In this document: one piece after another, positions 1,578 through 28,887 of the stretch | How positions within the stretch are numbered: the stretch's first letter is position 1 | How the letters are laid out: every line of letters begins with the position of its first letter | DNA from: Nitrospira sp. | GTDB taxonomy: Bacteria; Nitrospirota; Thermodesulfovibrionia; Thermodesulfovibrionales; Dissulfurispiraceae | Assembly: GCA_002634385.1 (NCBI GenBank) | Contig: NSJL01000027.1 | Location: 1-50,783, forward strand | DNA length: 50,783 nucleotides | Direction of reading: 5' to 3' | The notes under the pieces: generated by a model | Databases searched by the model: none | Told to the model about the DNA's origin: nothing | The model's input: the letters and a program-made list of their open reading frames with translations, nothing else | Made by a program: the position numbers and the translations under genes

Positions 1578-1606
1578 TTGACATGAACCGGAATTCACTG
1601 TTTAAT
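1578..1606 (+). promoter_or_regulatory. Near-consensus sigma-70 promoter (TTGACA-17 nt-TTTAAT) upstream of the selenoprotein gene pair
   Basis: TTGACA at 1578-1583, 17-nt spacer, TTTAAT at 1601-1606, about 55 nt upstream of the ATG at 1662. Confidence 0.45.
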
Positions 1607-1661: not shown

Positions 1662-1868
1662 ATGGCTGAAAAGGTACTTATTTACGGAAAGGCCAGCTGA
1701 CCCTTTACCATGAGGGCAAGGTCTGCCTATGGGGATACTGCAGAGTACTTTGATGTTCTGCGTGACAAGGCCAGATTCAAGGAGATGCTCGCATATACAA
1801 AAGGAGTTTCCCAGGTGCCGGTGATCGTCGAAGGGGAAAAAGTAACCATAGGGTATGGTGGATCGTGA
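1662..1868 (+). CDS. Glutaredoxin/thioredoxin-fold selenoprotein (in-frame TGA 1698-1700 read as selenocysteine: YGKAS-U-PFT redox motif)
   Basis: ATG at 1662 preceded by GGGAGGTGG RBS. Codon 13 is TGA exactly where Grx-like proteins carry the first Cys of the CPYC motif (VLIYGKAS[U]PFTMRARS). Reading continues in frame 56 more codons to TGA at 1866-1868, with C-terminal VPVIVEGEKVTIGYGG Grx-like sequence. An fdhF-like hairpin with apical GGUC lies 19-23 nt after the UGA (GGCA-AGGUC-UGCC at 1715-1727). Confidence 0.6.
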
Positions 1869-1949
1869 GCCGTATGACCGGCCGATAGTTCATCGGCATA
1901 ATGACAGTCCGTTCCCTTTTCAGGGAAAAAGCAGAGGAGGGTTTACCGC

Positions 1950-2162
1950 ATGGGTTTAGAAGAGCGCATCAAGTCCCTTATCGCTGTCGGTGCTTCCGTG
2001 ACCTCAAACTGCCAGGAATGAGTGAAATACCACGCGGGCAGGGCCCGCGAAGCCGGAGTTGACGAACAGGACATCCTGGAAGCGATCGAAGTGGGCAAAT
2101 CCATAAGAACGGGGTCAGCGACCAGAATGGACCAGTTCCTTTCCAAAATGTTCAATACATAG
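1950..2162 (+). CDS. AhpD-like (carboxymuconolactone decarboxylase family) selenoprotein; in-frame TGA 2019-2021 within a C-x-x-U-x-x-x-H motif
   Basis: ATG at 1950 with GAGGAGG RBS. The sequence ...VTSNCQE[U]VKYHAGRA... matches the AhpD-core CxxCxxxH motif, with Sec replacing the second Cys. It continues in frame to TAG at 2160-2162. The perfect hairpin CGCGGGC-AGG-GCCCGCG (2033-2049) starts about 12 nt after the UGA. Confidence 0.6.
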
Positions 2163-2171
2163 GAGAGCCGC

Positions 2172-2217
2172 GAAGTGGAGGGAGGCAGAGCGCATCAACT
2201 CTGTCTTCCTCCACTTC
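2172..2217. terminator. Bidirectional intrinsic terminator-like hairpin between the convergent AhpD-like gene (+) and the Ku/LigD remnant (-)
   Basis: 19-bp stem GAAGTGGAGGGAGGCAGAG / CTCTGTCTTCCTCCACTTC (two mismatches), 8-nt loop, followed by a T-rich tract (tttcttgcctctt). Confidence 0.45.
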
Positions 2218-2236
2218 CCGCAGGGTTTCTTGCCTC

Positions 2237-5442: not shown

Positions 5443-6468
5443 TCAGGGACGATATTCCCTGGCTGTCTCAAGAAATATCTTAATATTCTCAATGGGAACT
5501 GAATGAGGCAGGTCACAGGCCGGCATTGCCATGTACCCTCCCCCTGATGCAGCACTGGATATACACGCGAGAACAGCATCTCTTACGACTTTGCTGTCCT
5601 TATCCATTAATACTGCTGTCGCGGAGACATTCCCTGCAAGAACACAATTCCCGTGGAAGGCCTCCTTGGCCTTTTTCATGTCCACCATGGCATCAAGGCT
5701 TATGCAATTGGCACCTGAAGTACTTACCAGGTCAAGCCTGTCGCTCATCTCACCGCACATATGCAGCAGGCTTTTTGTGCCGGTCGCTTTCAGCTCCGAA
5801 AAAACGGTTTTCAAGGGCGGCAACCCCAGTTCTCCAAACCGCGCCCTTGAAATAAGACTTGCAGAACTCAACGAATCAGCCATTGAAATCATCTGAATAG
5901 TAGTATCGTCAATTAAGGGTTTATAGAAACGGAGCACCATCTTTGCGGCAAACTCGGCAACGGCCTTCACCAGGTCCTTGTTTTTGTGGATAGCTCTCAT
6001 AAGTTGTTCTATGCCGCAGAGTTGGCCTGCCAAAATGAAAGGGCCCCATGTTGTCGTCGTCACGACATACTTATTCCCCACATTCTTTGAGACGATCCTC
6101 GTTGCCTCTCTGATGTTGTTGAGAACAGGGTCGGTATCTATTCTCGACAGGTCAAGTTTTTCAAGATCAGAGATAGATCCTACTATCGGTTCCACGTCAG
6201 GCGCCCCCACCTTCCTGTAGGTGATGGGCGCCCCCAATGCTGCTACCAAACAGTTATTCAGCCCTGATCCTACATAAACGATATCAGATTGCAGGATGTC
6301 GGCCATTTCTGTTTGAATTTCTGCCATCCGTACGGGATTCCTTACCAACTTTTCCGGCTCTTCGCCGTAGTAACTGTAAGTCCAGACCCCTCCTCCGAAG
6401 ATCGAGGAGGGCATCCTATCGGTCTTCACAAAATCATAGGCCGAGAAAACAATCTCTTTTCCGTTCAT
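5443..6468 (-). CDS. Uroporphyrinogen decarboxylase (URO-D) family methyltransferase, MtaA/MtbA/O-demethylase MT-I-like (divergent paralog)
   Basis: 341 aa from the ATG at 6468 (GGAGGTGAGA RBS). URO-D/MtaA family architecture. Last gene of the long minus-strand cluster. Confidence 0.6.
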   Translation of the reverse strand: MNGKEIVFSAYDFVKTDRMPSSIFGGGVWTYSYYGEEPEKLVRNPVRMAEIQTEMADILQSDIVYVGSGLNNCLVAALGAPITYRKVGAPDVEPIVGSISDLEKLDLSRIDTDPVLNNIREATRIVSKNVGNKYVVTTTTWGPFILAGQLCGIEQLMRAIHKNKDLVKAVAEFAAKMVLRFYKPLIDDTTIQMISMADSLSSASLISRARFGELGLPPLKTVFSELKATGTKSLLHMCGEMSDRLDLVSTSGANCISLDAMVDMKKAKEAFHGNCVLAGNVSATAVLMDKDSKVVRDAVLACISSAASGGGYMAMPACDLPHSVPIENIKIFLETAREYRP

Positions 6469-6519
6469 GGTCTCACCTCCATGCAAGAGTCTTCACATAG
6501 GAAATGCATTCGCGGTTCA

Positions 6520-8205
6520 TTATGCAGCCGGCCCCAGGATAGCCTTGAGGTCTGCATCAGGTGTGGTAATGGCCATTACGTTGAAGTTTTTGATAAGCAC
6601 TCCCAGCACCCCCGGACTTATGAAGGCCGGCAATGACGGACCAATACGGATGCCCTGGATCCCGAGGTGGAAAAGCGAAAGCAGGACGGCCACGGCCTTC
6701 TGCTCGTTCCACGAGAGGACCATGGAAAGGGGGAGATCGTTTACTCCCACGCTAAAGGCCTTTGCAAGGGCGACTGCTATCTGAATAGAAGAGTAGGCGT
6801 CGTTGCACTGGCCTACGTCCAGGAGCCTCGGGATGCCGCCGATATCGCCCAGCTTCTTGTCGAAGAAGCGGAACTTGCCGCATGCCAGAGTCAGCACAAC
6901 GCAGTCCTTGGGCACTTTTTCGACGAAATCAGAGTAATAATGCCTTCCCTTTGTTCCACTGTCGCAGCCGGCAACAAGAAAGAAATGCCGAATACTCTTG
7001 TTCTTCACCGCCTCTATTACCGTGTCGGCAGCACTGAGGATCGCATTCCTTGCCGCACCGGTCAGCACAGAGCCCAGGTCCTCATCTTTCAAAAAGCCGG
7101 GCAGGGAAAGGGCCTTCTTTATAACGGGGGCAAAATCATTCTTTGTGATATACTGTATGCCGGAACTCCCAACAACGCCCGTCGTAAATACCTTGTCTTT
7201 GTAGGAATCGAGGGGCTTCTGGAAGCAGTTGGTGGACAGGACGATAGCTCCGGGAAACTGCTCAAACTCCTTGTTCTGGTTATGCCAGGCTGTCCCGTAA
7301 TGGCCGTAAAAGTGAGCGTATTTCTTCAGGCCGGGATAGCCGTGGGTGGGGAGCATCTCTCCATGCGTGTAGACATATATTCCCTTTCCCTCGCTCTGTT
7401 TGAGTATCTCTTCAAGTTCCTTAAGGTCATGTCCGGAAACGAGAATAGCCTTTCCTTTCTTGCGCCCAAGGGGTACCGTGGTAAAGACGGGATCACCGTA
7501 AGTGCCGGTGTTGCCTTTATCGAGCAACTCCATCGCCCGTATGTTTATTTCTCCGCATTTCAGGGCCAGCCCTACCCAGGCATCCAGGGAGAGATCCTTC
7601 CTGGTCATGGACGCCAGCATTTCGTGGAAAAAGGAATATATGGCGTCGTCGGTCCGTCCCAGGGTCCGGGCATGGCCAGTGTACGCTGCCACGCCTTTTA
7701 AGCCGAACAGCGTAGTACTCCGCAGGGATAGGACGTCAGGGTCCAAAGAATCGGGATTGCCGGGTCGATGTACCTGACCTTGCCAGGGCAGGACGCCATC
7801 ACTCGAAAAGAGGCCAAGGTTTTGAGCCTGCTTGAGCATTCCCTCGCGGCTTTTTTCTGGCAGGAAATTCGCCGGACCCTCCGCAAACGCGGTTTTCAGA
7901 CTCGCGGCCCGCAGCTTTTGTATCAGGCCGTCCTTGAGCTCGGCGCACCTTTTTATACATGAAACAAAAAAGTCAGGGTTGAAATTGACATTTGTAGCCG
8001 TTGAGAAAAGCGCATCCACCGTGTATTCATCCACTTCCCTGTCGGTTATCCCGGCTTTCCTGCCCTCAAGCGCAACCACCGAAAGTCCCTGCAGCGAATA
8101 GACAAGCAGATCCTGAAGATCTGATACTTCCGGAGTTTTTCCGCAGGCCCCGGTCGTCGTGCATCCCGTTCCATTTGCTGCTTTTTCACATTGATAGCAA
8201 AACAT
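6520..8205 (-). CDS. hcp: Hybrid cluster protein / hydroxylamine reductase
   Basis: Starts MFCYQCEKAANGTGCTTTGACGKT (canonical Hcp N-terminal Cys cluster). 561 aa, matching Hcp length. Confidence 0.85.
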   Translation of the reverse strand: MFCYQCEKAANGTGCTTTGACGKTPEVSDLQDLLVYSLQGLSVVALEGRKAGITDREVDEYTVDALFSTATNVNFNPDFFVSCIKRCAELKDGLIQKLRAASLKTAFAEGPANFLPEKSREGMLKQAQNLGLFSSDGVLPWQGQVHRPGNPDSLDPDVLSLRSTTLFGLKGVAAYTGHARTLGRTDDAIYSFFHEMLASMTRKDLSLDAWVGLALKCGEINIRAMELLDKGNTGTYGDPVFTTVPLGRKKGKAILVSGHDLKELEEILKQSEGKGIYVYTHGEMLPTHGYPGLKKYAHFYGHYGTAWHNQNKEFEQFPGAIVLSTNCFQKPLDSYKDKVFTTGVVGSSGIQYITKNDFAPVIKKALSLPGFLKDEDLGSVLTGAARNAILSAADTVIEAVKNKSIRHFFLVAGCDSGTKGRHYYSDFVEKVPKDCVVLTLACGKFRFFDKKLGDIGGIPRLLDVGQCNDAYSSIQIAVALAKAFSVGVNDLPLSMVLSWNEQKAVAVLLSLFHLGIQGIRIGPSLPAFISPGVLGVLIKNFNVMAITTPDADLKAILGPAA

Positions 8206-8397
8206 TTTATTTCCTCCCGATACCCTTTGTTATCTGCAGGCTGAGCAGATTAGGAAAGGGAAAGTTACGCTTTGTACAGTGTGAACATAGTCACTTCAAT
8301 TGAGGTGATTATGCTCACACAGGCTCATTTTTGAGCCTTCACCTTCATTACCTACTGTTGCCGATTCCCTTCGACGCTCGGACCCTTAACGCTTTCC

Positions 8398-9468
8398 TTA
8401 GTAAGCTCCATACAGGGCAGCCGCCTTCACGAGGGCCTTTATGTTCTCGGGCGGAACGTCGTGGTGAATTTCACATCCGGCCGATAATAGATATCCCCCT
8501 CCCGGCATACCGATCTCCAGGCATTTCTTCGCTTCTGCCATTACCTGCTCAGGGGTTCCGAACATGAGGGCCGCATTCGCCTTTGACACGCCGACGTTCC
8601 CTGCAATAGCCACCTGTTTCCCGTATTTCTCTTTTGCCCATTTCAGGTCGACCGAGTCGTGAAAAGCAACGCATATCGGCTGGATTTCATTGACGATCAA
8701 ATCCAGGAATGGAGTAGCGTTTTCACACTGATGGTAAATATACGGGGCCCTTATGGCGTCACGGATTTTTCTGTGGTAAGGGACGACGAACTCGGCATAC
8801 TGAGGCACGCTGACCGCCTCATCAACCATCCCGCCCTCAACAGTCGCTATTGCAATGGCCCCCGCTTCGAGCATGGCCTTGGCAAAAGCGATCGATGTCT
8901 GGGTGCAGAGCTCAAGCAGGTCATGGATAAAAGACGAATTTTTAGCCATCTCCACATAAAGCCGCTTATAACGGCCTTCGAGAACATCCGCCACCGTATC
9001 CGGAGGTCCGTTCACGAACCCCACGATGGGCACATCGGGATAGTTCTTCTTCAGTTTCCTGATCACGTCCAGGATGACCGGCATCCTTCCGGCCTTGGTG
9101 GGATCGGGGACTGAAAGTTTGGCAAGATCCGCAGGGGTCTTGACGGCCCATTCGCTGACCACGCCCATGCGCATACCGCCGCCGCACTTGAGCATGTAAT
9201 CCAACTTCGAGCCCAAGGCCTCGCCCTCGACCCGGAAATCCACGGGCAGGAAGAAGTTATCAGCCCCGTACACCGTATACTGCTTCTCTATCGACTGATA
9301 GAGCTTTCTCGGATGGCTAAGCCCTTCCTTCCACGTATAGTCCAGATCCACGAAGTCATGCTGGGCGGCACTCTGAAAATAAAGGGCGACGGGTACCCGG
9401 TCCGGTGTTTTAAACGTAAGGGCTGCAACAACACGTTCTAACGGAGTCATTGTGGACATTGTTCTCAC
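8398..9468 (-). CDS. URO-D family methylcobamide/corrinoid methyltransferase (MtaA/CmuA/O-demethylase MT-I-like)
   Basis: 356 aa, typical MtaA-family length and pattern. Starts 7 nt downstream of the corrinoid-protein gene. Confidence 0.7.
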   Translation of the reverse strand: MRTMSTMTPLERVVAALTFKTPDRVPVALYFQSAAQHDFVDLDYTWKEGLSHPRKLYQSIEKQYTVYGADNFFLPVDFRVEGEALGSKLDYMLKCGGGMRMGVVSEWAVKTPADLAKLSVPDPTKAGRMPVILDVIRKLKKNYPDVPIVGFVNGPPDTVADVLEGRYKRLYVEMAKNSSFIHDLLELCTQTSIAFAKAMLEAGAIAIATVEGGMVDEAVSVPQYAEFVVPYHRKIRDAIRAPYIYHQCENATPFLDLIVNEIQPICVAFHDSVDLKWAKEKYGKQVAIAGNVGVSKANAALMFGTPEQVMAEAKKCLEIGMPGGGYLLSAGCEIHHDVPPENIKALVKAAALYGAY

Positions 9469-9475
9469 CTCCTCC

Positions 9476-10114
9476 TTATTTTTCCACTGCGGATTCTACC
9501 CACTTCAGGGCTTCCTTTTCATTGTCACCATAAAAATCAGCCCCTATCTTCTTGCAAAACTCCCAGGAGATCGGTCCTCCGCCGACGCCCACCTTGATCT
9601 TGTCCCGGAGGCCTTCTTCCACGAGTCCCTCCAGGGTCCGCTTCATACTGAGCATCGTCGGCGTCATGAGGGTAGAGAGCATCAGAAAGTCGGGCTTCTC
9701 CTCAGCCACCTTCTCAAGATAATCCTCGATGGGCACGTCACGTCCCATGTCTATACAGGCAAACCCATTTGCCTCCAGCACTATCCTTACGAGGTTCTTG
9801 CCGATGTCATGGACGTCGCCTTCGACAACGCCGATCAGTACCTTGCCTTTCCCTGCCGTTTCGACCTTCATCTTTGACTTCAGGATATTGAAGGCTTCAT
9901 AGAAGGCTTCGGAGCTGAGGAGCATCTGGGGTAGATAGTACTCCTTCTTATCATACTTTTCGCTGACTATTGCCATAGCCGGGATCATACCCTTTTCTGT
10001 TATGATCATCGGGTCGATATTGTCAGCCAAGCCCTGTCTGGCCAGCCTTCCCGCTTCGTCAATGTCGCCTACAACGATGGCGTGGTTAAGGTCTTCGAAA
10101 ATTTTTTCAGACAT
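9476..10114 (-). CDS. Corrinoid (B12-binding) protein of methyltransferase systems (MtaC/MtbC/OdmA-like)
   Basis: 212 aa with an N-terminal helical cap domain. Rossmann B12-binding domain with the DxHxxG motif (GDVHDIGKN) and S.L....M signature. Confidence 0.85.
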   Translation of the reverse strand: MSEKIFEDLNHAIVVGDIDEAGRLARQGLADNIDPMIITEKGMIPAMAIVSEKYDKKEYYLPQMLLSSEAFYEAFNILKSKMKVETAGKGKVLIGVVEGDVHDIGKNLVRIVLEANGFACIDMGRDVPIEDYLEKVAEEKPDFLMLSTLMTPTMLSMKRTLEGLVEEGLRDKIKVGVGGGPISWEFCKKIGADFYGDNEKEALKWVESAVEK

Positions 10115-10153
10115 TGTGTACCTCCACCTTAGTAAAAAAGGTTTATACAGCTA

Positions 10154-10966
10154 TCACGCCTCTGCCTTGTCTTCTTTCACCTTTACATTGCCACTCCTTT
10201 CTCTTTTAGTGAGCAGGCTTTTGGCCTGTTCAAATGTGCGCTCAAGAATGTTGAGCGTCCCCTTGGTTTCGTCCACATAAAACCCGAAGGTATCCGCGAA
10301 CTTTTTCGTTTCGGCGCTGAGCGTCTCGCGGTCTCCGATTCCCGTGTCAACCATCAGTACCCGCTTATAAGCCGCTTTCTTAAAGATCCATTTGACCGTG
10401 GCGATATCCGGACAGTGAAGTTCCTTTAGCAGCAGCGTATCAGAGTGCTTAAGCCAGCCGGGAGTCACAAACCATGTGCCCGCCTCACGACGGACCTGAT
10501 CCAGGTATTTTTCGGTCCCTCCCAGCACCAGGCACACGCAGTCATCGATCGTACTGCCATCTTTATTCTGCAGCAGTACGATAGGGCAACGGAGATCGAC
10601 CAATTGTTTTTCGATATCGAGGAGTCCATTGCCGCAAAGTCCGTAGCCCAGCACGAGGACGTCACTCTTCTCAGCCAGAATCCTGGCCTGCTCTGCAACC
10701 CCCTCTCTCAGCATAGTCTTGTCCATGTGAAGAGCGACGCGAAGCACCGCAGCCAGAACCTCGAAAGAGAGTGCCGAGTCCGGCAGAAACTCAGCTGCAT
10801 CCTTTATCCTTTTCAGCCTGTTGCCCAGCAACCCATGCAGGGACGCAATGCTGTCTGTCGCAGGACCGCTCTCGACGAAAGTGACTTTCCCGATATCAGG
10901 ATCATGGGAAAGCATATGCGCCATCTCATCTTCGAAAATTTCGCACGTTAAGAGCCCGATTACCAT
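10154..10966 (-). CDS. DUF1638-domain protein (accessory protein commonly adjacent to corrinoid methyltransferase genes)
   Basis: Start placed at the ATG at 10966 (MVIGLLTCEIF..), with a GGAGAGAGGAGGA RBS-like tract upstream. Family assignment is from overall pattern and gene context. Confidence 0.5.
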   Translation of the reverse strand: MVIGLLTCEIFEDEMAHMLSHDPDIGKVTFVESGPATDSIASLHGLLGNRLKRIKDAAEFLPDSALSFEVLAAVLRVALHMDKTMLREGVAEQARILAEKSDVLVLGYGLCGNGLLDIEKQLVDLRCPIVLLQNKDGSTIDDCVCLVLGGTEKYLDQVRREAGTWFVTPGWLKHSDTLLLKELHCPDIATVKWIFKKAAYKRVLMVDTGIGDRETLSAETKKFADTFGFYVDETKGTLNILERTFEQAKSLLTKRERSGNVKVKEDKAEA

Positions 10967-10983
10967 GGCATCCTCCTCTCTCC

Positions 10984-12618
10984 TCACCCCGCAACCTTGA
11001 CGGACTCAAACAACAGACCGTTAGGGCATTCCGCTTCACAACGCCGGCAAGCGGTGCCGTTACAAAGGTCGGAGCGGATTACAATGCGTTCATTCTCACC
11101 CACCCTCTCGATGCGGGCGGCGGCCTCCGGACATTCATTGAGACATTTGCGGCAATTATCACCCAGGCACCCCCCTGCAGGGAAATCAAGAGAGAGTTCG
11201 GTGCCCACGCTGTCCACGACAGTCAGTCCCATAGGACCGATTTCGATGATGTCCCGCTTTGAGATGTGAATCAACTCCGGCGACGGGTGCGGCTGAGGAA
11301 ATTCCTGAATGCCATAGAGAGCGAGCATGCCATTCATCATATGCATCGGCATTCCTTCATCCCAATAGGCCAACTCACAGACATAGGCATTCTTAAATAC
11401 CTTTGAATCTGCGAACATGATGTGCTTGGCGGTGATCGTATCGGCCACTTTCTGGAGCATGTCCAGGAGCTCCGGACGTCTGACGATTTCAGTGGCAAGA
11501 CACAGGCTCGTGTTCCCTGCCTGTATTATCCTGCCTGCCGAGTTAGGAATCAGGCCGACTTTCCGGGCCTTTAAGGGGTCCACGTATGTGCCCGAGGCCC
11601 CTGTCATGTACACAGCGTCCAGTTTCGGCAGTTTTATGCCGACCTCTTCCACGAGTGTCATGTGCCCGGCCCGTATGGCGCCGATAGCCTTCCCCGCCTC
11701 TCGCACATCTTTCTCTGTCAGGTAGATCCCTTCGGTCATGTGCAGTTTTCCGTCGGCAGTACTGATCTTTGGCGGGCCTACCAACCCCGCATCGATCCCT
11801 TCGGCAATCGCGGCGACAACACCCGTGCCGGTAATCCCTTTCGGCTGGCAGTTCGGGGCGCCCTGCAGAACAATCACACCGTCCTTGACCCGGATGCTCG
11901 AACCGGAACGTGCGATGAGATCTGAATTGAGCACACGAATGTCCCAGACTCCGTCGCCGGAGACTAAGTCCGCAATGGCGCCCGGCTGAGCCAACATGCC
12001 GCAGGAGACGTGCTGTCCTTCCATGGCAGGGCCTGCTGCTGCCGAACCCGTCAGTATGTCACCGCCGACCTTGATGGCCATTTCCGCGTTGGTACCATAA
12101 TCTGTGACGATAGCCACCTCATCCTTATCAAGGAGGCCGGTGATATACATCATCGCCAGGGCATCCGCACCGATTTCATGCCTGACTGCCGGCGGCACAA
12201 GGAGTTCCGCCTTGTCGGGCAACTCCAGTCCGATATCGGCAGCCCGGATGACACGGGCAGGCCGCTTGACCGCCTCCGTGATTCCCAGCTTTTTGAGTCC
12301 CCGCTTGCCCGCAAAGGCCAGATCCCTGATTTCCATCCTTTGGAAGAGAGAAAGCTGGATGGGATTTCCGCAGATCGCCACACGCCCCACCTCTTTAAGG
12401 TCGATCGGGAGGGCACGGATGACCTTGTGCACCGCATTGAGAATCAACTTGTGAGTAATGTCATATCCCATTTCAAGACAGAAGTGAAGATGGTCCATAA
12501 CATTTGCCCCCGGCAGAGGGTGGCGGGTCGATATCGCGGTGGCGATGACCCTGCCATCCTCATCAATAGCCTGGGCCCGGAACCCGCTCGTCCCCAAATC
12601 TATTGACAGGCTTTTCAT
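10984..12618 (-). CDS. ramA: RamA-type reductive activase of corrinoid enzymes (ASKHA-fold ATPase with C-terminal 2x[4Fe-4S] ferredoxin domain)
   Basis: 544 aa. N-terminal sugar-kinase/Hsp70-like fold (MKSLSIDLGTSGFRA). C-terminal Cys clusters (CLGDNCRKCLNECP, CNGTACRRCEAECP). Confidence 0.75.
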   Translation of the reverse strand: MKSLSIDLGTSGFRAQAIDEDGRVIATAISTRHPLPGANVMDHLHFCLEMGYDITHKLILNAVHKVIRALPIDLKEVGRVAICGNPIQLSLFQRMEIRDLAFAGKRGLKKLGITEAVKRPARVIRAADIGLELPDKAELLVPPAVRHEIGADALAMMYITGLLDKDEVAIVTDYGTNAEMAIKVGGDILTGSAAAGPAMEGQHVSCGMLAQPGAIADLVSGDGVWDIRVLNSDLIARSGSSIRVKDGVIVLQGAPNCQPKGITGTGVVAAIAEGIDAGLVGPPKISTADGKLHMTEGIYLTEKDVREAGKAIGAIRAGHMTLVEEVGIKLPKLDAVYMTGASGTYVDPLKARKVGLIPNSAGRIIQAGNTSLCLATEIVRRPELLDMLQKVADTITAKHIMFADSKVFKNAYVCELAYWDEGMPMHMMNGMLALYGIQEFPQPHPSPELIHISKRDIIEIGPMGLTVVDSVGTELSLDFPAGGCLGDNCRKCLNECPEAAARIERVGENERIVIRSDLCNGTACRRCEAECPNGLLFESVKVAG

Positions 12619-12622
12619 AGTT

Positions 12623-13672
12623 TTAAACCCATACCTTCCTGAAGCCGTGTTTCTTACCGGTTTCGACCATGGTCTGCAGGTTTATCGTCGAGGTCTGCGG
12701 GGGTATTCCACAGCAGGTTGTGAGGACGTCAGTCCCCTTCTCAATGCACTCTATGACGGCTTGCTTGACTTCTTCCGGCTCCCCGAACAGCAGGACCCCG
12801 TTCACATTAATATTTCCACACATGGCGGTGTTTTCTCCCACCGTCTGTTTGGCATAAGCCATATTTACCATGGAGTCAACCGAGATACCCGGCGCCACCT
12901 CCGCCATCCTCGTCAGAAGCAGGTCGTTCTTCCCGCAGATGTGAAGGATTGTGGGCACTGAAATGTTTTCGGTGATGCTCCGGGAGTAGGGCTTGGCAAA
13001 TTCGTCAAACTGTTTTGGACTGATCAGATCGCAGCTGGCAGTGGCATCAACGATCACTACAACATCCGCCCCTGCCTCGACCTGGGCCTGGGCATACTTC
13101 ACGCAGACCTTCTGAGCCCTCTCAATGAGCTCCTTGGTAACGGCAGGCTTCCTCATAATTTCGCGCATGAAGGGGTCTACCCCCCTGACCTGAGCCGCTA
13201 CCATGAAGGGTCCCACGACCATCGAGAGGACGGGTATGGTATCGGGAACCCTCTTTTTGAGGAGCTTGATCGCTTCGAGGACCACCGGCATCCTGCCGTC
13301 TTTATAAGGGTCGGGGTCCTTCACCCTGCTGAAGTCGCCCGTTTCGGACACGGGGGGTTCCTTCACCGGGGGTTGTATATCCAGGCCCTTGTTGCGCCCT
13401 GCGTGATACTCCAGCTCGCATCCCATGGCTTCGGCTTCTATATTGATATCGAAGGGGACACGAACGCTCTCAAAGCCGATGACCCGATGTGCCTCATACG
13501 ACAGGGTAGCCATGAGTTCCGCGTTGGAATGCACTTCCGGCCAGAAAGCCCCGCATGATTTCATCAACTCTATCGTTCCCGTATGCAACGGCTGCGCTAC
13601 CGGTATGCGGTCTACGGGTTGATGGGCCAGGGTGGCAAAAAGTCTTTCCTTCGGAGACATGGTTTCTTTCAT
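12623..13672 (-). CDS. URO-D family corrinoid methyltransferase (MtaA-like paralog)
   Basis: Start at the ATG at 13672 (MKETMSPKERLFATL) with an AAGGAGGA RBS. 349 aa. Ends 4 nt before ramA. Confidence 0.7.
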   Translation of the reverse strand: MKETMSPKERLFATLAHQPVDRIPVAQPLHTGTIELMKSCGAFWPEVHSNAELMATLSYEAHRVIGFESVRVPFDINIEAEAMGCELEYHAGRNKGLDIQPPVKEPPVSETGDFSRVKDPDPYKDGRMPVVLEAIKLLKKRVPDTIPVLSMVVGPFMVAAQVRGVDPFMREIMRKPAVTKELIERAQKVCVKYAQAQVEAGADVVVIVDATASCDLISPKQFDEFAKPYSRSITENISVPTILHICGKNDLLLTRMAEVAPGISVDSMVNMAYAKQTVGENTAMCGNINVNGVLLFGEPEEVKQAVIECIEKGTDVLTTCCGIPPQTSTINLQTMVETGKKHGFRKVWV

Positions 13673-13778
13673 GAAATCCTCCTTTTCGGGGTTCTTGCTT
13701 CTCTCCCTAAGATGAAGCATTGAGAGGACCCTTCTTGTGTTGTGGTTAAGCATTCCTGATTGATCAGCAAAAAAATGA

Positions 13779-15395
13779 TCACTCTTTTTCCTCTGTCCTG
13801 CACATTCCAAAATCGTATGCACCTGTTCCCGGAGGCATTCCCGGCATAAGATTGACGGTGCCGGTCAAGGCACAAAAATACCCCGCACCGGTAAACGGCA
13901 CAAAATCAACGATTGGCAGTGTATATTTTCCGGGCACATTTTTTATCCGCGAGTCGTGGGAAAGGGACAGATGGGTTTTTGCGATGCACGGACCGCAATT
14001 CTGACGGCTTGAATGAAGAGCCTCCTGTCTTTCCATCCCTGTCAGGATCCCGGATGCCCGGGAAGATTGTGTTATCCCCTGCGCACCGTATATCGTGGAG
14101 GCAACTTTCGCTATTTTCTCTTCCGTGGAAAGAGAATCATCATAAAGCCTGCGGAAGCTGAAGCGCCTGTGGGTAGCCTCCACCACTGTTTCAGCGAGTT
14201 CGTCTCCCCCCCTGCTTCCCTTCTGCCATCCCCTGTGTGCAACGGCGAAATCGGCGCCGAGATCAAGTGCGGTCTTTGCAATCTTTCTTATTTCTTCATC
14301 GTGATCAAAGGAAAACCTGTTGACGGCAACGACCAGCGGAAAGCCGAAGATCTTAACGTTCCGAATATGTCTTTCGAGGTTCTTCATTCCCGCCATCAGG
14401 GCGGCGTCATTCCTTCCTGCCCATTCGCTTTCTTCAGAAACCCGGCCCCTGTCCAACGTGCTGAGACCGTGCATCTTGAGAGCCCTGGCCGTTACCACCA
14501 GGACGACGGCATTGGGCAGCCTCTGAAGCACGGGGGCTTTGATAGCCATGAATTTCTCAAAACCCGTATCCGTACCGCCTCCGCCTTCGGTAACAACGAA
14601 ATCGGCTGTCCTCAGCGCCACTTCGTCAGCCATGACGGAACAGTTGCCGTGGCTGATGTTGGAGAAAGGTCCGCAGTGGAGAATGACCGGGGTGTTTTCC
14701 GAAGAAAGAACAAGATTAGGCAGAAGGGCCTTCCGGAGGATCCGTATCAGATCCGATTCTATCCTGATAGCGGACATCAGGACCGGATTGCCGGCCTCGT
14801 CAAAGCCCAGCGTTATTCTTGATAGCCTCTCTCTCACCTCTTCATGGGTTCTGGAGAGGGAGAGGATTGCCATGAGCTCCGACGCCTGGGTCATGATAAA
14901 GCCGCTCCTCAGGGATCTGTCACATAGGTCAATAGCCCTGTTCCAGAAAATCCTCTCTTCATCCAGGCCAGGCGGATTCCCCCAGAAAAAGAGGTTATCC
15001 ATATGGGCTGCAACAAGATTGTGGGCCATGGTGACTGCGTGCGTGTCTCCGGTACAGTGAAAATCGATTTCCTCCTGAGGAAGAAGCCTTGCTTTGCCCC
15101 CTCCGGAGCCGCCGCCCTTGCGGGCAAAGTAGAGGCCCATCGAGGGTTGTCTCAATGTGGCTATCGAGCTGCTGCCTCTCCTATTAAGGGCCATGCTCAG
15201 CGTTATTGCCGTAACCGTTTTCCCTTCTCCTCTGTAAGTGGGGGTCATCGCGGTTACAAAGATATATTTGCCGCCGGGCCTTCTCGGCAGTCTTTCGGAC
15301 ACTTCGGGAGAAATCTTGGCCATAGACTTCCCGTAAGGATCGATTTCCTTCTTTTGAAACCCGAACCGTGCGGCGATGGGAAGAATGGATCGCAT
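13779..15395 (-). CDS. fhs: Formate--tetrahydrofolate ligase (formyl-THF synthetase)
   Basis: 538 aa. P-loop TPTYRGEGKTVTAITL. FTHFS C-terminal pattern (GAGYFCALTGTVNLMPGMP). Confidence 0.85.
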   Translation of the reverse strand: MRSILPIAARFGFQKKEIDPYGKSMAKISPEVSERLPRRPGGKYIFVTAMTPTYRGEGKTVTAITLSMALNRRGSSSIATLRQPSMGLYFARKGGGSGGGKARLLPQEEIDFHCTGDTHAVTMAHNLVAAHMDNLFFWGNPPGLDEERIFWNRAIDLCDRSLRSGFIMTQASELMAILSLSRTHEEVRERLSRITLGFDEAGNPVLMSAIRIESDLIRILRKALLPNLVLSSENTPVILHCGPFSNISHGNCSVMADEVALRTADFVVTEGGGGTDTGFEKFMAIKAPVLQRLPNAVVLVVTARALKMHGLSTLDRGRVSEESEWAGRNDAALMAGMKNLERHIRNVKIFGFPLVVAVNRFSFDHDEEIRKIAKTALDLGADFAVAHRGWQKGSRGGDELAETVVEATHRRFSFRRLYDDSLSTEEKIAKVASTIYGAQGITQSSRASGILTGMERQEALHSSRQNCGPCIAKTHLSLSHDSRIKNVPGKYTLPIVDFVPFTGAGYFCALTGTVNLMPGMPPGTGAYDFGMCRTEEKE

Positions 15396-16432
15396 CAGCC
15401 CGTGATTCTCCCGTTGGCCTTCACTGTTTCAACCATGATACGCATATTTTCTGCGGGAATTTCAGGCCACAGGTCACAACCGGGCCATACTGCGCTCACT
15501 CCGTCCTCAAGTGCTCTCAGTACCTCCTTCTCGACATCCTCGGGGCTCCCCAGACAAAGTATCTGGTAAGTATCGAGATTCCCGAAGATGAGGGCATCCT
15601 TTCCGAGAAGCTGCCTCGCTTTGCTTACCTCTGTCTTCTTTTCTACGCTTATCGCGTCGCCTTTTGCGTTTGCCATATCTCCCACAATCGGATTCGTGTT
15701 GCCGCAGATATGGAGCACCTTGTGCATCGGTATTCCCGCCATAATTCTGTCCAGATGCGGTTTCACGAGGGATCGGAACATTCTCGGACTCAGGACATCG
15801 GTGCTGGCGCCCATCTCTCGTATGGTTATGTAGTCGGCTCCGGCATTCCTGTATACGTCGGCCACTGCAATGATAAGGTCTGCAAACAAGCCAAGGACCT
15901 CATTCACGGTCTCCGCATTCTTGAAAGCCTGCTTCAGGAGCCCTTCCAGGTCCATCACCTGCCCTGCCAGAAGAAAAGGGCCCAGTACATAAGTGCCTAC
16001 AGCTACTTCTTCACCTATTTCTTTTTTCAGTATCCGTATCGCTTCGGTGATAACGGGAAGCCTTCCCTTTTCCGCAAGGTTCCCCGGAATCTTTATGTCC
16101 GCCGGCCCCTTGACAATCTTGTCCTTTATCGTCGGATACAGGATTCCGTCCCGATGGGAATAGGTATTCATCGTGCAGCCCAGAATTTCAGCCTCAACCG
16201 CAATGTCGTACGGGACGACGGCGCATTCAAGGCCGAAGAGCCTGTACGTAGAGGAAGAAGTCGCTGCCATCAGCTTCGGATCGGTGTGGACTTCAGAGAA
16301 AGGTATGCTGCTTTCTTTCAGTCCGTGGACAGTCACATTTCCCATACCGCTAAAGACCGGGACACGGTCGATCTCCTCCTTTCTGAATAGCCTGAGCACT
16401 CTCTCCCTGGGGCTGTACTTTTCTCCCGTCAT
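15395..16432 (-). CDS. URO-D family corrinoid methyltransferase (MtaA/CmuA-like paralog)
   Basis: 345 aa. The stop overlaps the fhs start by 1 nt (translational coupling). Confidence 0.7.
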   Translation of the reverse strand: MTGEKYSPRERVLRLFRKEEIDRVPVFSGMGNVTVHGLKESSIPFSEVHTDPKLMAATSSSTYRLFGLECAVVPYDIAVEAEILGCTMNTYSHRDGILYPTIKDKIVKGPADIKIPGNLAEKGRLPVITEAIRILKKEIGEEVAVGTYVLGPFLLAGQVMDLEGLLKQAFKNAETVNEVLGLFADLIIAVADVYRNAGADYITIREMGASTDVLSPRMFRSLVKPHLDRIMAGIPMHKVLHICGNTNPIVGDMANAKGDAISVEKKTEVSKARQLLGKDALIFGNLDTYQILCLGSPEDVEKEVLRALEDGVSAVWPGCDLWPEIPAENMRIMVETVKANGRITG

Positions 16433-16504
16433 TTATTCCTCCTTAACCATGGTTCCCGCTTTCCAGGTTGTGTATGCAAAGTGGAAACATTTTGCATACA
16501 CAAC

Positions 16505-17311
16505 CTATAGTCTTCCCTCTTTGTACGCGGCCAGATACGCAGCACAGTCCCTATCTCTTCCAAGCATCGTTTGTGCTGCCACAATAGTAGCCATGAGTTC
16601 TCTGTCGAGCGGGTTGAGGAGGACCGCGTCAAGGTCTGAAGCCATCAGCATCGCCTGGAGAGTCCTCGTCGCGAGCGAGCGCTTCGGGAGATTCCATGTA
16701 CTGGCGCTGACATTCACCATGGTCTTCACCTGGGGGAGCTCCTTCTTTATCAGCCTGAGGGACTCGAGGGAGGTGAGAGATTGCCTGTACCAGTTCGGCG
16801 CACTCACCGGGAGGCACATGAAATCGATATAAAGCAGAGAAAGATCGATTCCATACCTGTCAACCGTTTCAGCAAGTCTTTTCGCTATTTCGAGCCTTCC
16901 TTCCGCATGATCAGGCATCCCCCCCTCCTCATCGATCGTTACACCGACAACTTTGCACCCCATCTCTTTTACAAAAGGGAGTATTCCATTGATCCTGTGC
17001 TTCTGCAGGGTTATAGAGTTGGCGATGCAGCTCTTTACCTCCCTGCATCGGCGCAGGCCCGCCTCGATCGCCTTCGGATGAATACTGTCCACCGCGAGGG
17101 GAATATCGGTCACTTCCTGGACAATATCGACGGCCCATTCAAGCCTCTGGACATTGTTTTCAAGCTTCAGCCCCGCATTGACATCGATTATGTCCGCTCC
17201 TGCCTCGACCTGCTTCGTGGCTTCCTCCTGAATCACCCTGGCATTCTTCTCCTCATACGCCTTCTCGATATACTTGATCGATGTGTTGATCCTCTCTGCA
17301 ATTACTTCCAT
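16505..17311 (-). CDS. Pterin-binding methyltetrahydrofolate:corrinoid methyltransferase (MtrH/AcsE/MT-II-like, DHPS-like TIM barrel)
   Basis: 268 aa with a pterin-binding-domain pattern (ERINTS...DIIDVNAG...). Confidence 0.7.
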   Translation of the reverse strand: MEVIAERINTSIKYIEKAYEEKNARVIQEEATKQVEAGADIIDVNAGLKLENNVQRLEWAVDIVQEVTDIPLAVDSIHPKAIEAGLRRCREVKSCIANSITLQKHRINGILPFVKEMGCKVVGVTIDEEGGMPDHAEGRLEIAKRLAETVDRYGIDLSLLYIDFMCLPVSAPNWYRQSLTSLESLRLIKKELPQVKTMVNVSASTWNLPKRSLATRTLQAMLMASDLDAVLLNPLDRELMATIVAAQTMLGRDRDCAAYLAAYKEGRL

Positions 17312-17336
17312 TGTCCCTCCTGTTTCAAATCGATTA

Positions 17337-18203
17337 TTAAAATCCAGCCTTATCCAGAACGAGGGGCACTTTGTCCTCCCAGTGAATGGTATAGATATGA
17401 ACCCCCCGGGATAGATCCCGTAAATCCCTGATCAGACGGGCTGCTATTTCGATACTTGTGTCCACGGGATCGGTGCTCTTTTCAAATGCATCGAGTATGA
17501 ACTTCGGAATAGTAATCCCGGGGATATTCTTGTTCATGAAATGTGCCATCTTCGCGGATTTGAGCAGAAAGACGCCCACAAGGACAGGCACGGATAAATG
17601 CCTAGTTTTTTCAACGAAACCGGCAAACATCTCGATGTCGAAAACAGGTTGGGTCTGAAAGAAATCGGCACCTGCCGCAACTTTCTTCTCCATTTTCATT
17701 ATCTGAAGTTCCAGCGGAGCGGATGACGGGTTCACCGCCGCTCCCAGGCAAAAGGACGGAGAGCCCTTGAGGCGATTGCCCGCCATATCCGTACCGTCCT
17801 CCAGCCCTCGGGCCGCTTTCAAGAGCTGAACCGATTCAATATCGAACACTCCCTTTGCGCCGGGATGGTCCCCCAGGGACTGGTGGTCTCCGGAAAGGAC
17901 GAGGACGTTATTTATTCCCAGGGCTGAAGCGCCTAACAGATCGGATTGCAGGGCCAGCCTGTTCCTGTCCCTGCATACCATCTGAAGTATCGGTTCAAGT
18001 CCCTCTTCTTTTATCAGGAAGGAGGCGGCAAGGGAGCTGAGGCTCATGACGGCGCTCTGATTGTCCGCCGCATTTACGCCGTCGACCCTTCCCCGCAGGG
18101 GATGGAGTATCTTCAACTCTTCTCTTATATCCGTCCCCTTAGGCGGGAGAAAATCCGTTGTAATGACAAATCTTCCTGACTTTAATGCTTCCCTCAATGC
18201 CAT
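17337..18203 (-). CDS. metF: 5,10-methylenetetrahydrofolate reductase family protein (MetF-like, paralog 1)
   Basis: 288 aa, MTHFR-family TIM barrel pattern (FVITTDFLPPKG...VCRDRNR...). Separated by 1 nt from paralog 2. Confidence 0.7.
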   Translation of the reverse strand: MALREALKSGRFVITTDFLPPKGTDIREELKILHPLRGRVDGVNAADNQSAVMSLSSLAASFLIKEEGLEPILQMVCRDRNRLALQSDLLGASALGINNVLVLSGDHQSLGDHPGAKGVFDIESVQLLKAARGLEDGTDMAGNRLKGSPSFCLGAAVNPSSAPLELQIMKMEKKVAAGADFFQTQPVFDIEMFAGFVEKTRHLSVPVLVGVFLLKSAKMAHFMNKNIPGITIPKFILDAFEKSTDPVDTSIEIAARLIRDLRDLSRGVHIYTIHWEDKVPLVLDKAGF

Positions 18204-18204
18204 G

Positions 18205-19107
18205 TTACCCTACGGCTCCTGCGGTGCGGTTTTTTCTTCCCGTAATTTCTGCTTCGTCCAGGATGCGGGGAATCCGGTCGTGCCACGGCGTGGTCATCAT
18301 GAGGTGAACCCCGGAGCAGACAGCCGCGAGTTCCCTTACAAGCCTGACGGTTATATCGATGCTTCTCTTCTCAACATCTCCTTTTTCGAGCTCCTGTAGT
18401 ATCGATTCAGGAATATGCACACCCGCGACGTTTTTATTCATGAAGCGCGCGGAGGCTGCAGATTTCAGAATGAATACCCCTGCAAAAACCGGGATATCAA
18501 GAAAGGCCACCCCCTCCAGGAACCGGACATATCTATCGACGTCAAAGATGGGCTGAGTCTGCAGAAATTCGGCTCCTGCCTCAGCTTTGAGACGCGCCTT
18601 CCCGATCTCTTCCTGAGGTTTTGCCGCGCCGGGGTCGAGGACAGCGCCGAGACAGAAATTCGGTATGCCGTCAAGGCGCTTTCCACCCATGTCAAAGCCC
18701 TTCTCGAGATTCCTCGCTGCCGCCAGCAGCTGGACAGAGTCAAAGTCGAAGACCGGTTTTGTGCCCGGATTGTCCGAATCCGTCGCCTCGTCACCTCTCA
18801 GACAGAGAATGTTCCTCACTCCCAACGCATAGGCGCTCAGAAGCTCTGACTGCAGACTGATCCTGTTTCTGTCGCGACAGGTGATCTGCATTATGGGCTC
18901 TATCCCCATCTCTCTTATCTTCACGCAGGCCGCGAGGGCGCCCATCCTCATATTCGCCCCGGGCATATCAGCGACATTTATCGCATCAACCCTCCCCTTC
19001 AAAAGCTCGATACCTTTTACCGTTTTGTATACAGCTGTGCCTTTCGGCGGGATTACGTCTGTCGTTACAACAAACTCTCCGGATCTCAGCTTTTCCTTGA
19101 ATGTCAT
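18205..19107 (-). CDS. metF: 5,10-methylenetetrahydrofolate reductase family protein (MetF-like, paralog 2)
   Basis: Start at the ATG at 19107 (MTFKEKLRSGEFVVTTDVIPPKG) with a GAGGTGG RBS. Same family as the adjacent gene. Confidence 0.7.
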   Translation of the reverse strand: MTFKEKLRSGEFVVTTDVIPPKGTAVYKTVKGIELLKGRVDAINVADMPGANMRMGALAACVKIREMGIEPIMQITCRDRNRISLQSELLSAYALGVRNILCLRGDEATDSDNPGTKPVFDFDSVQLLAAARNLEKGFDMGGKRLDGIPNFCLGAVLDPGAAKPQEEIGKARLKAEAGAEFLQTQPIFDVDRYVRFLEGVAFLDIPVFAGVFILKSAASARFMNKNVAGVHIPESILQELEKGDVEKRSIDITVRLVRELAAVCSGVHLMMTTPWHDRIPRILDEAEITGRKNRTAGAVG

Positions 19108-19118
19108 CTTTCCACCTC

Positions 19119-19991
19119 TCATCTCTCGGGAATAACCCACTTCTTGCTTCTCTGTATATTCTTAAGCCTCATGAGCTGTTCCTCGGCTATCGTAAAGGTA
19201 TGTTCGGGGGCAGGGAATTTGAAGGCTTCTACCTCATCCTTGAAGGCTTTGACCGCTTTCGTAGTCTCAGCCCAGAGATTCACATATTTTTTTACGAATT
19301 TCGGAACAAAGTGTTCATAGAGTCCGATCATGTCCTGAGTGACAAGGGCCTGTCCGTCACAGTGGAGGCCGGCACCTATTCCTATCACGGGGATTTTCAG
19401 CGTTTCCGTAATGATACCGGCGACGCTCGGAGGCAAACATTCTACGGAAAGAGCAAAAGCCCCGGCTTTCTCGCATTCCATAGCGAGGTCGATGAGGTCT
19501 GACGCCTCTTCAGCGGTCTTCCCCATCACGGCAAACTTGCCGTATCGTGACACAAACTGGCGTGTAAGACCGATATGAACCATGGTAGGGATTCCGGATT
19601 CCACTATGGCCCGTGCGATCTTTACCACTTCCGGACCGCCTTCGATCTCTACACCGTCAGCACCTCCTTCCTTGATAAATCGCCGGGCATTCCTCCTGGC
19701 ATCCTCTTCGGTGTTGTAATCCATAAAGGGCATGCAAGACAGGATAAACGCCCGTTCTACGGCATTGGCGACAGCCTTGGTATGATGAATCATCTCCTCC
19801 ATAGTCACCGGGAGGGTATTCTTATATCCCAGTCCGGTCATGCCCAGAGCGTCGCTTACGAAGATGATGTCGATGCCGGCCTGATCGATAATCCTGGCAA
19901 ACGGATAATCGTAGGCGGTCAACATGCTTATTTGTTCGCCCTTTTTCTTCTTGGCCGTGAGAGAAGAAACACTCACCTTGTTTTTTTCCAT
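19119..19991 (-). CDS. panB: 3-methyl-2-oxobutanoate hydroxymethyltransferase-like enzyme (PanB family) with about 25-aa C-terminal amphipathic extension
   Basis: Strong PanB pattern (ISMLTAYDYPFARI..DIIFVSDALGMT..TLPVT..IPVIGIGAG..DGQALV). 290 aa vs about 264 for canonical PanB. The extra C-terminal tail is TIAEEQLMRLKNIQRSKKWVIPER. Confidence 0.8.
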   Translation of the reverse strand: MEKNKVSVSSLTAKKKKGEQISMLTAYDYPFARIIDQAGIDIIFVSDALGMTGLGYKNTLPVTMEEMIHHTKAVANAVERAFILSCMPFMDYNTEEDARRNARRFIKEGGADGVEIEGGPEVVKIARAIVESGIPTMVHIGLTRQFVSRYGKFAVMGKTAEEASDLIDLAMECEKAGAFALSVECLPPSVAGIITETLKIPVIGIGAGLHCDGQALVTQDMIGLYEHFVPKFVKKYVNLWAETTKAVKAFKDEVEAFKFPAPEHTFTIAEEQLMRLKNIQRSKKWVIPER

Positions 19992-20005: not shown

Positions 20006-20563
20006 CTATATGATTACGCTGCTCAGGCTGCTGTGGGGTGCAGGTATAATGGTCGTCATTGTCAGCATGCCGGACTCTTCGATAGCAGCCGTCGCAGCAT
20101 CAAGTGCCGCCTCGACGGAATAAAGCTCACCGGTCAGGGTTACAAAAGCCTTTCCCCCCAGCCCTCTCGCCAAACGTATCTCTATTAGCATTATGTTTGC
20201 CGCTTTTGCCGCCGTATCTGCGGCGATTATGCATGAAGCGATCGAAAAAGTCTCAATAACTCCCAGAGATGCGACTTCCTTCACCTCGGTAGTTCCCCGG
20301 ATGGCCGGGAAGATGCCTTCATGGATGTTCGGGATCAGGAGACGATCGACAATTTGATCTCCACCGATCTGAACTCCAACTTCGATGGATGCTTCCACCG
20401 GGGCGACCAATCCGCAGATGACAACACTGTATTTTCCAGGACAGGTAGGCGTCGCCTCCAATAACTCTATAGGCGCTTTCTTCATCATATAATCACATGC
20501 CATAATTCCGCGTGCAATACTTCTGAATTCTATGAGGCCCAGGGCCTGTCGCGCTTCCGTCAT
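20006..20563 (-). CDS. pduT: BMC-T shell protein, PduT-like (tandem BMC domains, putative [4Fe-4S] site)
   Basis: 185 aa. Two BMC domains. The conserved TCPGK Cys is at the position of PduT C38. Confidence 0.8.
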   Translation of the reverse strand: MTEARQALGLIEFRSIARGIMACDYMMKKAPIELLEATPTCPGKYSVVICGLVAPVEASIEVGVQIGGDQIVDRLLIPNIHEGIFPAIRGTTEVKEVASLGVIETFSIASCIIAADTAAKAANIMLIEIRLARGLGGKAFVTLTGELYSVEAALDAATAAIEESGMLTMTTIIPAPHSSLSSVII

Positions 20564-20575
20564 CCGGCTTTCCCC

Positions 20576-21904: not shown

Positions 21905-21917
21905 GCTGAAACCGTTC

Positions 21918-28782: not shown

Positions 28783-28887
28783 CTATATCTTTCCGTCAAT
28801 AATGTGCATATGCACATTATAGGCAACTGTGAAACGAGTGTCAAGGTGCCGACATTGTTTGGTCACAGTCCAGCACTCTCTATTCGG

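Follow-up and report, generated by a model that had tools for sequence, protein, structure and literature searches.

A short AhpD-like gene with an in-frame TGA codon and a UXX-star neighbour is a probable selenoprotein gene

Results

An AhpD/CMD-family gene interrupted by a single TGA

The window analysed here, a stretch of 50,783 nucleotides of DNA, contains at positions 1950–2162 of the forward strand what is, with a probability of about 0.88 as judged from sequence, a genuine CMD/AhpD-like selenoprotein gene decoded with selenocysteine (Sec). Translation, profile scores and a codon alignment with homologs identified the gene, and the codon alignment supports reading its in-frame TGA as Sec. 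A single frame runs from the ATG at 1950 through 70 sense codons to a TAG at 2160–2162, with the translation MGLEERIKSLIAVGASVTSNCQE-TGA-VKYHAGRAREAGVDEQDILEAIEVGKSIRTGSATRMDQFLSKMFNT-TAG. The sole internal stop is the TGA at 2019–2021 (+ strand, codon 24), which lies inside N-C-Q-E-U-V-K-Y-H and gives the active-site motif C21-Q-E-U24-V-K-Y-H28, with the Cys-x-x-Cys/U pair and the His at +4 both present. An earlier sequence-only reading had described a frame open to the TAG at 2160 and a CxxCxxxH motif with Sec at the second Cys. Both descriptions were borne out, with one internal TGA in the frame and that TGA aligned with the second Cys in every Cys-type homolog.

A Shine-Dalgarno sequence, GAGGAGGG, was read at 1934–1941 (+), 8 nt 5′ of the ATG, and the GTG at 2022, which is the GenBank start, has no Shine-Dalgarno sequence comparable to it. 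In the public record (contig JAIOIV010000017.1, MAG GCA_019912415.1) the locus is annotated only as a 46-residue "hypothetical protein" from this GTG, and all Sec-type relatives that we found are publicly annotated as hypothetical fragments of 42–47 residues. The closest taxon-named relatives of the gene and its upstream neighbour as a pair are Nitrospirales/Nitrospirae MAGs, with up to 91% protein identity. The NCBI label 'Alphaproteobacteria bacterium' on record GCA_019912415.1 is probably wrong, given these Nitrospirota relatives.

Conservation of the TGA codon

The homolog scan used one genome per GTDB species and returned 80 loci, to which later searches added further TGA forms. The sequence-only reading had proposed aligning the gene to Cys homologs and asking whether these end naturally at the TGA position; the aligned codon was TGT or TGC (Cys) in all 77 Cys-type genes, which come from other genomes, and the homologs read on past this position. 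Within the GTDB-species scan, TGA forms were found in only two Nitrospirota MAGs. All searches together gave nine contigs with the TGA: the window, SJ299 contigs 250 and 32, SKS1.bin124, Ga0153916, ERZ27271350, ERZ23498685, GCA_040961595.1 and Ga0394675. These form a small monophyletic clade, mostly from Nitrospirota, and the Sec forms were monophyletic in 36 of 40 bootstraps of a neighbour-joining tree in which the Sec column was coded as Cys. A single metagenome scan, in which Sec was back-translated as Cys and TGA forms could be found only via a second peptide pattern, gave one locus.

The TGA was retained across the nine contigs at protein identities of 59–91% and with near-saturated synonymous divergence. 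For four Sec-type sequences, pS was 0.4–0.95 and pN was 0.02–0.24, both upstream and downstream of the TGA, and a pN/pS of about 0.05–0.4 indicated purifying selection on both halves of the gene in the Sec clade. Low pN against high pS on either side of the TGA thus excluded both pseudogene decay and a C-terminal ORF translated on its own. A genome-wide reassignment of TGA was rejected, since TGA is the commonest ordinary stop in the window and terminates 23 of its 50 ordinary ORFs. No tRNA-Sec (selC), selA, selB or selD was found within the 50-kb window, and a search for further read-through ORFs in the window found none. In Nitrospirae, selC may be contained in selB or overlap it (PMC13188914). 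Rfam at the gathering threshold was uninformative; its one match in the window was a tRNA-Met, with no SECIS family among the hits.

A SECIS-like hairpin downstream of the TGA

The sequence-only reading had pointed to a GC-rich perfect hairpin 12 nt past the UGA, and conservation supported a SECIS-like hairpin, CGCGGGC-AGG-GCCCGCG, at 2033–2049 (+), with a 7-bp stem and the loop AGG. There are 11 nt between the UGA and the hairpin, which begins at the 12th nt, and the distance from the UGA to the loop is 18 nt. The bacterial SECIS model has a loop of 3–9 nt, a stem of 4–16 bp, 16–37 nt from UGA to loop, an MFE of −7.5 kcal/mol or lower, and a G at loop position 1 or 2 with G or U as the next base (PMC13188914). 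The hairpin agrees with this model on every point (AGG loop, 7 bp, 18 nt, −13.9 kcal/mol).

Folding of the 34 nt from the UGA onward gave −13.9 kcal/mol (z = −2.9), with 1 of 200 shuffles as stable, and in a 62-nt context the z-score was only −1.4. When the equivalent 48 nt of the 77 Cys-type homologs were folded, the mean was −9.7 and 19 of the 77 were at or below −13. Folding energy was rejected as evidence for the hairpin because of the z-score of −1.4 and because the Cys-type genes are equally stable; the evidence is instead its conservation. In the Sec clade, CAC-GCG-GGC-AGG-GCC-CGC-GA is almost invariant, whereas third positions elsewhere are scrambled. Where the amino acid was invariant, the codon was identical in four Sec sequences at 5 of 6 positions in the hairpin compared to 6 of 32 elsewhere (p = 0.005). 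Across six sequences, 42 of 42 cells (100%) pair, and the sole changes in the hairpin are two C-to-U giving G-U, one non-synonymous (Ala to Val). All changes in the six sequences are one-sided, with no double compensatory changes among them. The same element was present in three further contigs.

Some Cys-type genes (e.g. L013 and L066) carry a similar GGC-AAG-GCC hairpin at the SECIS position, within the 48 nt that follow the second Cys codon. This arises because H-[AV]-G-K-A-R-E written in GC-rich codons is self-complementary, and the hairpin may have been a pre-adaptation for conversion of Cys to Sec. A pattern-based terminator call on the SECIS stem labelled it a minus-strand terminator.

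The adjoining UXX-star gene and the flanking signals

The Grx-like gene at 1662–1877 (+), immediately upstream, was identified by its translation and its NF041114 score (98.2 bits against a cut-off of 72) as a double selenoprotein gene of UXX-star family 1, which is catalogued with the motif UxxT and two Sec (PMC13188914). Its in-frame TGAs are at 1698–1700 (S-U-P-F-T) and 1866–1868 (GGS-U-A-V-stop), and the translation, MAEKVLIYGKAS-U-PFTMRAR...GYGGS-U-AV-stop, places one Sec in UxxT and the other three residues before the stop. The gene also scored 29.1 bits against the Pfam Glutaredoxin model (cut-off 22.9). The two genes are separated by a 72-nt spacer and have three Sec codons in all. The proposal in the sequence-only reading that they form a two-gene selenoprotein pair held up, as the neighbour belongs to a curated selenoprotein family and the pairing recurs in relatives; the neighbour carries two Sec codons rather than one (at 1698 and 1866). 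A second UXX-star/AhpD-Sec pair was seen in the SJ299 MAG, on contig JADLDZ010000032.1 (L037, 2690–2925). The N-terminus of its UXX-star protein is aberrant (..ILL-TGA-KICSPFSMRAR): Ser takes the place of Sec, the residue before it is Cys, and a further TGA lies upstream. An assembly artefact, a pseudogene and a variant gene are all possible explanations.

Between the two genes, after the UXX-star stop, the hairpin GCCGAU-AGUUC-AUCGGC was read from the sequence and folded at 1881–1897 (+). Its MFE was not significant (z = −0.4), and GCCGAU...AUCGG-like hairpins were found at the equivalent place in L001 and L083. It is a candidate SECIS for the C-terminal Sec of UXX-star. Downstream of the pair, a long hairpin at 2160–2232 (+) lies between the AhpD-like gene and a convergent LigD-like ORF. 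It folded at −45.4 kcal/mol (z = −7.0), with 0 of 200 shuffles as stable, and its longer stem has about 23 consecutive pairs. No T-run follows it, yet it is likely the transcript end despite this.

A sigma-70-like promoter motif, TTGACA-17 nt-TTTAAT, was read at 1578–1606 (+), 56 nt upstream of the UXX-star gene; the sequence-only reading had put the pair under a near-consensus sigma-70 promoter. The −10 hexamer TTTAAT is without the usual A at position 2, so the promoter is putative and its activity only suggested by the motif. The consensus scan missed this motif because the scan demands an A at position 2 of the −10. The pattern class had two matches in the window compared to 0.00 expected, and the other, at 28816–28844 (−), is a perfect TTGACA-17 nt-TATAAT consensus. 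A promoter reported by the scan at 1874–1902 (ATGACC/CATAAT) lies across the intergenic hairpin and is unlikely to be real.

Other features of the window were also recorded. The LigD primase-polymerase ORF at 2237–2880 (−) matches only the C-terminal half of the profile (positions 121–254 of 254), and an overlapping ORF at 2569–2880 has a Ku-like N-terminus (MRVIWSGTISFGLINIPVKMY...) and no Pfam match; the region 2237–2880 (−) resembles the remains of a Ku-LigD end-joining locus after deletion or decay. A large corrinoid-dependent methyl-transfer/C1 gene cluster occupies 5443–19140 (−) and 20006–23507 (−). It encodes four URO-D/MtaA-like methyltransferases, a B12-binding protein, a RACo activase, a DUF1638 protein, a hybrid-cluster protein, a formate-THF ligase, two MTHFR and a pterin-binding protein, and the C1 genes are followed by a BMC shell protein, an RnfC/Nuo51-like protein and an aldehyde dehydrogenase. 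The cluster points to anaerobic methyl-group metabolism, possibly housed in a microcompartment.

Family membership and predicted fold

The 70-residue protein was scored against profiles with Sec written as Cys. It passed the cut-offs of Pfam CMD (PF02627, 49.9 bits against 23) and the NCBIfam AhpD core domain (TIGR00778, 34.9 against 27.8), and fell below those of the GSU3128 family (NF041047, 33.3 against 110, with a match spanning residues 3–67), AhpD proper (TIGR00777, 19 against 191.95) and the arsenosugar-associated peroxidase-like protein (TIGR04169, 29.9 against 120). The protein thus fits the general CMD/AhpD models and none of the narrower NCBIfam ones. When the family profile was compared with the PDB, the best sequence matches were the small CMD proteins 3BEY, 7Y4R, 1VKE and 1P8C (E = 4.5e-9 to 1e-5), with six chains per deposition and the CxxC aligned. 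A structure predicted for a Cys homolog that is 59% identical, rather than for the window protein itself, had four helices, a pLDDT of 80 and the CxxC at the start of helix 2. The best PDB matches of this model were CMD/AhpD structures (TM about 0.6, E about 0.008).

In AhpD the position 12 residues before the first Cys holds the proton-relay Glu, and in the window protein it is Ser9. This position was Ser or Ala in 7 of 7 Sec-type genes and Glu in 58 of 77 Cys-type genes. The Pro of CxPC was likewise missing from all Sec forms and found in 69 of the 77 Cys forms, and the motif His was kept in all Sec forms. With the relay Glu replaced by Ser or Ala, strict AhpD-type catalysis is therefore not guaranteed. 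A low-pKa selenol independent of the relay would explain the loss of the Glu; equally, the loss may be a trait of the clade. Many Cys-type relatives carry a Cys-rich C-terminal tail (CGC, CGS or CECD) that the Sec clade is without.

Gene neighbourhoods of Sec-type and Cys-type homologs

UXX-star adjoins the Sec-type AhpD-like gene in seven of the nine contigs, and the double selenoprotein MbdU (NF045648, 755 bits against 600) is directly upstream in six of the seven contigs with upstream sequence. The window is the exception among these seven, with no MbdU found in its 50 kb. UXX-star and MbdU neighbourhoods have reportedly been described by Haft & Tolstoy in 2025 and Haft & Gwadz in 2023. In at least two of the MbdU contigs the genes lie in ArsR-type metal-linked operons, and in relatives the pair is at the end of operons built around MbdU. 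In two longer contigs an ArsR-type regulator opens the operon, a TlpA-like W-U-P-E-C gene and small TGA-containing membrane proteins lie inside it, and a MerR, HMA, DsbD or cation-efflux gene lies alongside. No ArsR or ars genes were found near the AhpD-like gene in the window and no MbdU is present there, so the link to metal(loid)s comes from the relatives only.

The ArsR-headed operons in L086 (2100–6200) and L088 (2000–6150) are dense in TGA-containing genes, including MbdU and the AhpD-like gene. Both have a TlpA-like thioredoxin-fold gene (AHW-U-PEC) and small membrane proteins with F-C-U-Q-F. The L086 operon also has a Thioredoxin_3-like gene with GFS-U-R, and UXX-star is present in L086 only, not in L088; on the opposite strand of L088 are MerR, HMA, DsbD and a glutaredoxin-like gene.

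Neither UXX-star nor MbdU was found beside Cys-type loci. The neighbours of the Cys-type homologs were an ECF sigma factor (31 loci), ACR3 (23), ArsM-like methyltransferases (21), a SaoE/SO_0444-like permease (9), ArsC (7), ArsR (6), DsbD/CcdA (6) and ArsA (4). The ECF-type sigma factor (TIGR02937, 112 bits), in 31 of the 78 loci analysed for neighbours, nearly all of them Cys-type, was usually immediately upstream, and no other upstream neighbour of the short Cys-type CMD proteins is as common. Together with the Cys-rich tails, it may be a sign that the Cys forms act as partners in redox or metal sensing. Pfam scans of window ORFs, and the main clusters of neighbours at related loci, gave no match to AhpC or peroxiredoxin.

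Discussion

UGA-24 would be decoded as Sec by SelB and Sec-tRNA(Sec), recruited via the hairpin that lies 11 nt downstream, within the codons for H-A-G-R-A-R-E. The conserved neighbourhood suggests that the gene is co-transcribed with the UXX-star gene immediately upstream. By analogy with the CxxC...H site of AhpD (PMC3141380), the product would be a small thiol/selenol oxidoreductase in which the U24 selenolate takes the place of AhpD's second CxxC Cys, and oxidation would give a C21-U24 selenenylsulfide. The presence of the pair in the MbdU operons of relatives and of the Cys homologs in arsenic-resistance operons points to support of metal(loid) handling, through redox chemistry or ligand exchange, as the most likely role, in preference to the classical recycling of AhpC. 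We give somewhat less than even odds to the proposal, suggested by the neighbourhoods of relatives, that the protein is functionally coupled to UXX-star and MbdU in such metal(loid) handling.

That the locus is instead a pseudogene or split gene, in which TGY became TGA and translation stops to leave only a 23-residue peptide or the 46-residue fragment from GTG 2022, is very improbable. The step from TGC or TGT to TGA is a one-base change, only the 46-residue ORF is annotated here and similar ones in relatives, and what looks like a decayed Ku/LigD locus lies immediately downstream. However, the same TGA persists in nine contigs of 59–91% protein identity, where synonymous divergence is close to saturation and pN is low to either side of it. 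ATG 1950, and not GTG 2022, is the codon with a strong Shine-Dalgarno sequence in front of it, and the 46-residue fragment would be missing half of the CMD domain together with the first Cys. Programmed or leaky read-through, in which a near-cognate tRNA for Trp, Cys or Arg rather than Sec decodes the UGA and the hairpin is a generic stimulator, is if anything slightly more improbable still. It would fit a 50-kb window in which the Sec machinery was not found and a short hairpin with similar counterparts in Cys-type genes. The position of the UGA, on the other hand, is that of the redox-active Cys of CxxC, a classic Sec/Cys pair, and in the loop, correctly spaced from the UGA, is the G-G of the SECIS model (PMC13188914). 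In addition, the adjacent UXX-star, MbdU and TlpA-like W-U-P-E-C genes of the clade are TGA-containing members of selenoprotein families, which implies a Sec-using organism.

A different alternative accepts the selenoprotein and disputes its role: the product could be a classical antioxidant, either an AhpD-type reductant of AhpC or a weak peroxidase, unrelated to metals. We consider this unlikely, but far less so than the two previous alternatives. The CxxUxxxH motif and the predicted CMD fold are AhpD-like (PMC3141380), and thiol oxidoreductase is the usual classification of AhpD-like selenoproteins (PMC1088965). Against this, neither the window ORFs scanned with Pfam nor the main clusters of genes flanking related loci had an AhpC or peroxiredoxin match, the TIGR00777 score for AhpD was 19 bits against 192, the relay Glu is absent and the neighbours are arsenic- or metal-linked.

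A Sec-decoded protein with a supporting role in metal(loid) handling can be extended to a joint reading, which as a whole is speculative and a shade less probable than the coupling to UXX-star and MbdU. The Sec-type short AhpD-like proteins would then be a distinct unnamed subfamily, passing no NCBIfam equivalog and annotated everywhere as 42–47-residue fragments. They would be a dedicated component of a selenoprotein-rich metal(loid) operon (MbdU, UXX-star and TlpA-like UxxC), sometimes with an ArsR-type regulator. They would also have a single origin from Cys-type ancestors in arsenic operons, in which the hairpin encoded by H-[AV]-G-[KR]-A-R-E was turned into a SECIS, with the relay Glu and the CxPC Pro lost after Sec replaced Cys.

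For annotation, the hypothetical fragments in GenBank and other sources would be replaced by a 70-residue CxxU selenoprotein as the true product, with a double selenoprotein as its neighbour. The CMD/AhpD-like selenoproteins would gain a member from a probable Nitrospirota MAG, tied to UXX-star/MbdU by neighbourhood and to arsenic-resistance operons by homology, and this small, tractable protein could be used for probing the UXX-star and MbdU systems. The hairpin in some Cys-type genes illustrates a possible evolutionary route from a Cys codon to a Sec codon. Knowledge of selenoprotein decoding is unchanged by the finding.

Comparison with known systems

The active site has the same C-x-x-C/U-x-x-x-H spacing as AhpD from Mycobacterium tuberculosis, with the motif predicted to sit on the equivalent helix pair of an all-helical fold. 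The proton relay of that enzyme consists of Glu118, Cys130, His132, Cys133 and His137 (PMC3141380). In contrast to it, the window protein has 70 rather than about 177 residues, a Ser at −12 and no AhpC partner nearby. The best sequence and fold matches, 3BEY (O27018), 7Y4R (RclX) and 1VKE/1P8C (TM1620), share the aligned CxxC, but all are Cys proteins of 96–145 residues with extra N-terminal helices, and none is a selenoprotein. The arsenic-related AhpD-type CxxU proteins are alike in domain and motif, and Cys homologs of the window protein occur in ars operons. The window protein matches them only locally, however (30 bits against 510 and 29.9 against 120), and stands alone without a methyltransferase fusion.

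Among catalogued selenoproteins, AhpD-like (COG2128) and CMD-domain (PF02627) CxxU proteins have been known from the Sargasso Sea since 2005 (PMC1088965), "AhpD-like 1/2" selenoproteins were counted in the GOS survey, with 299 and 70 sequences (PMC2398784), and Geobacter has a "distant AhpD homolog" selenoprotein (PMC1794560). The AhpD-like/CMD types, UXX-star family 1 and MbdU are all included in a 2026 review (PMC13188914). The GSU3128 family (seleno)protein of Geobacter (NF041047) is likewise short (84 positions), AhpD-related and CxxU, but at 33.3 bits against 110 the window protein is not a member of that equivalog. The CMD-like or 'AhpD-like 2' selenoproteins share PF02627, CxxU with Sec for the second Cys, an in-coding SECIS just downstream and many Cys homologs. 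Compared to these, by description rather than by sequence, the window clade is very short (70–71 residues), comes from MAGs and metagenome contigs, those of its MAGs that are named being Nitrospirota, and adjoins UXX-star and MbdU. As CMD/AhpD-like CxxU selenoproteins are already catalogued, the window gene adds a member to a known type, and it is the tie of a short Sec-type AhpD-like protein to MbdU/UXX-star neighbourhoods that may be new.
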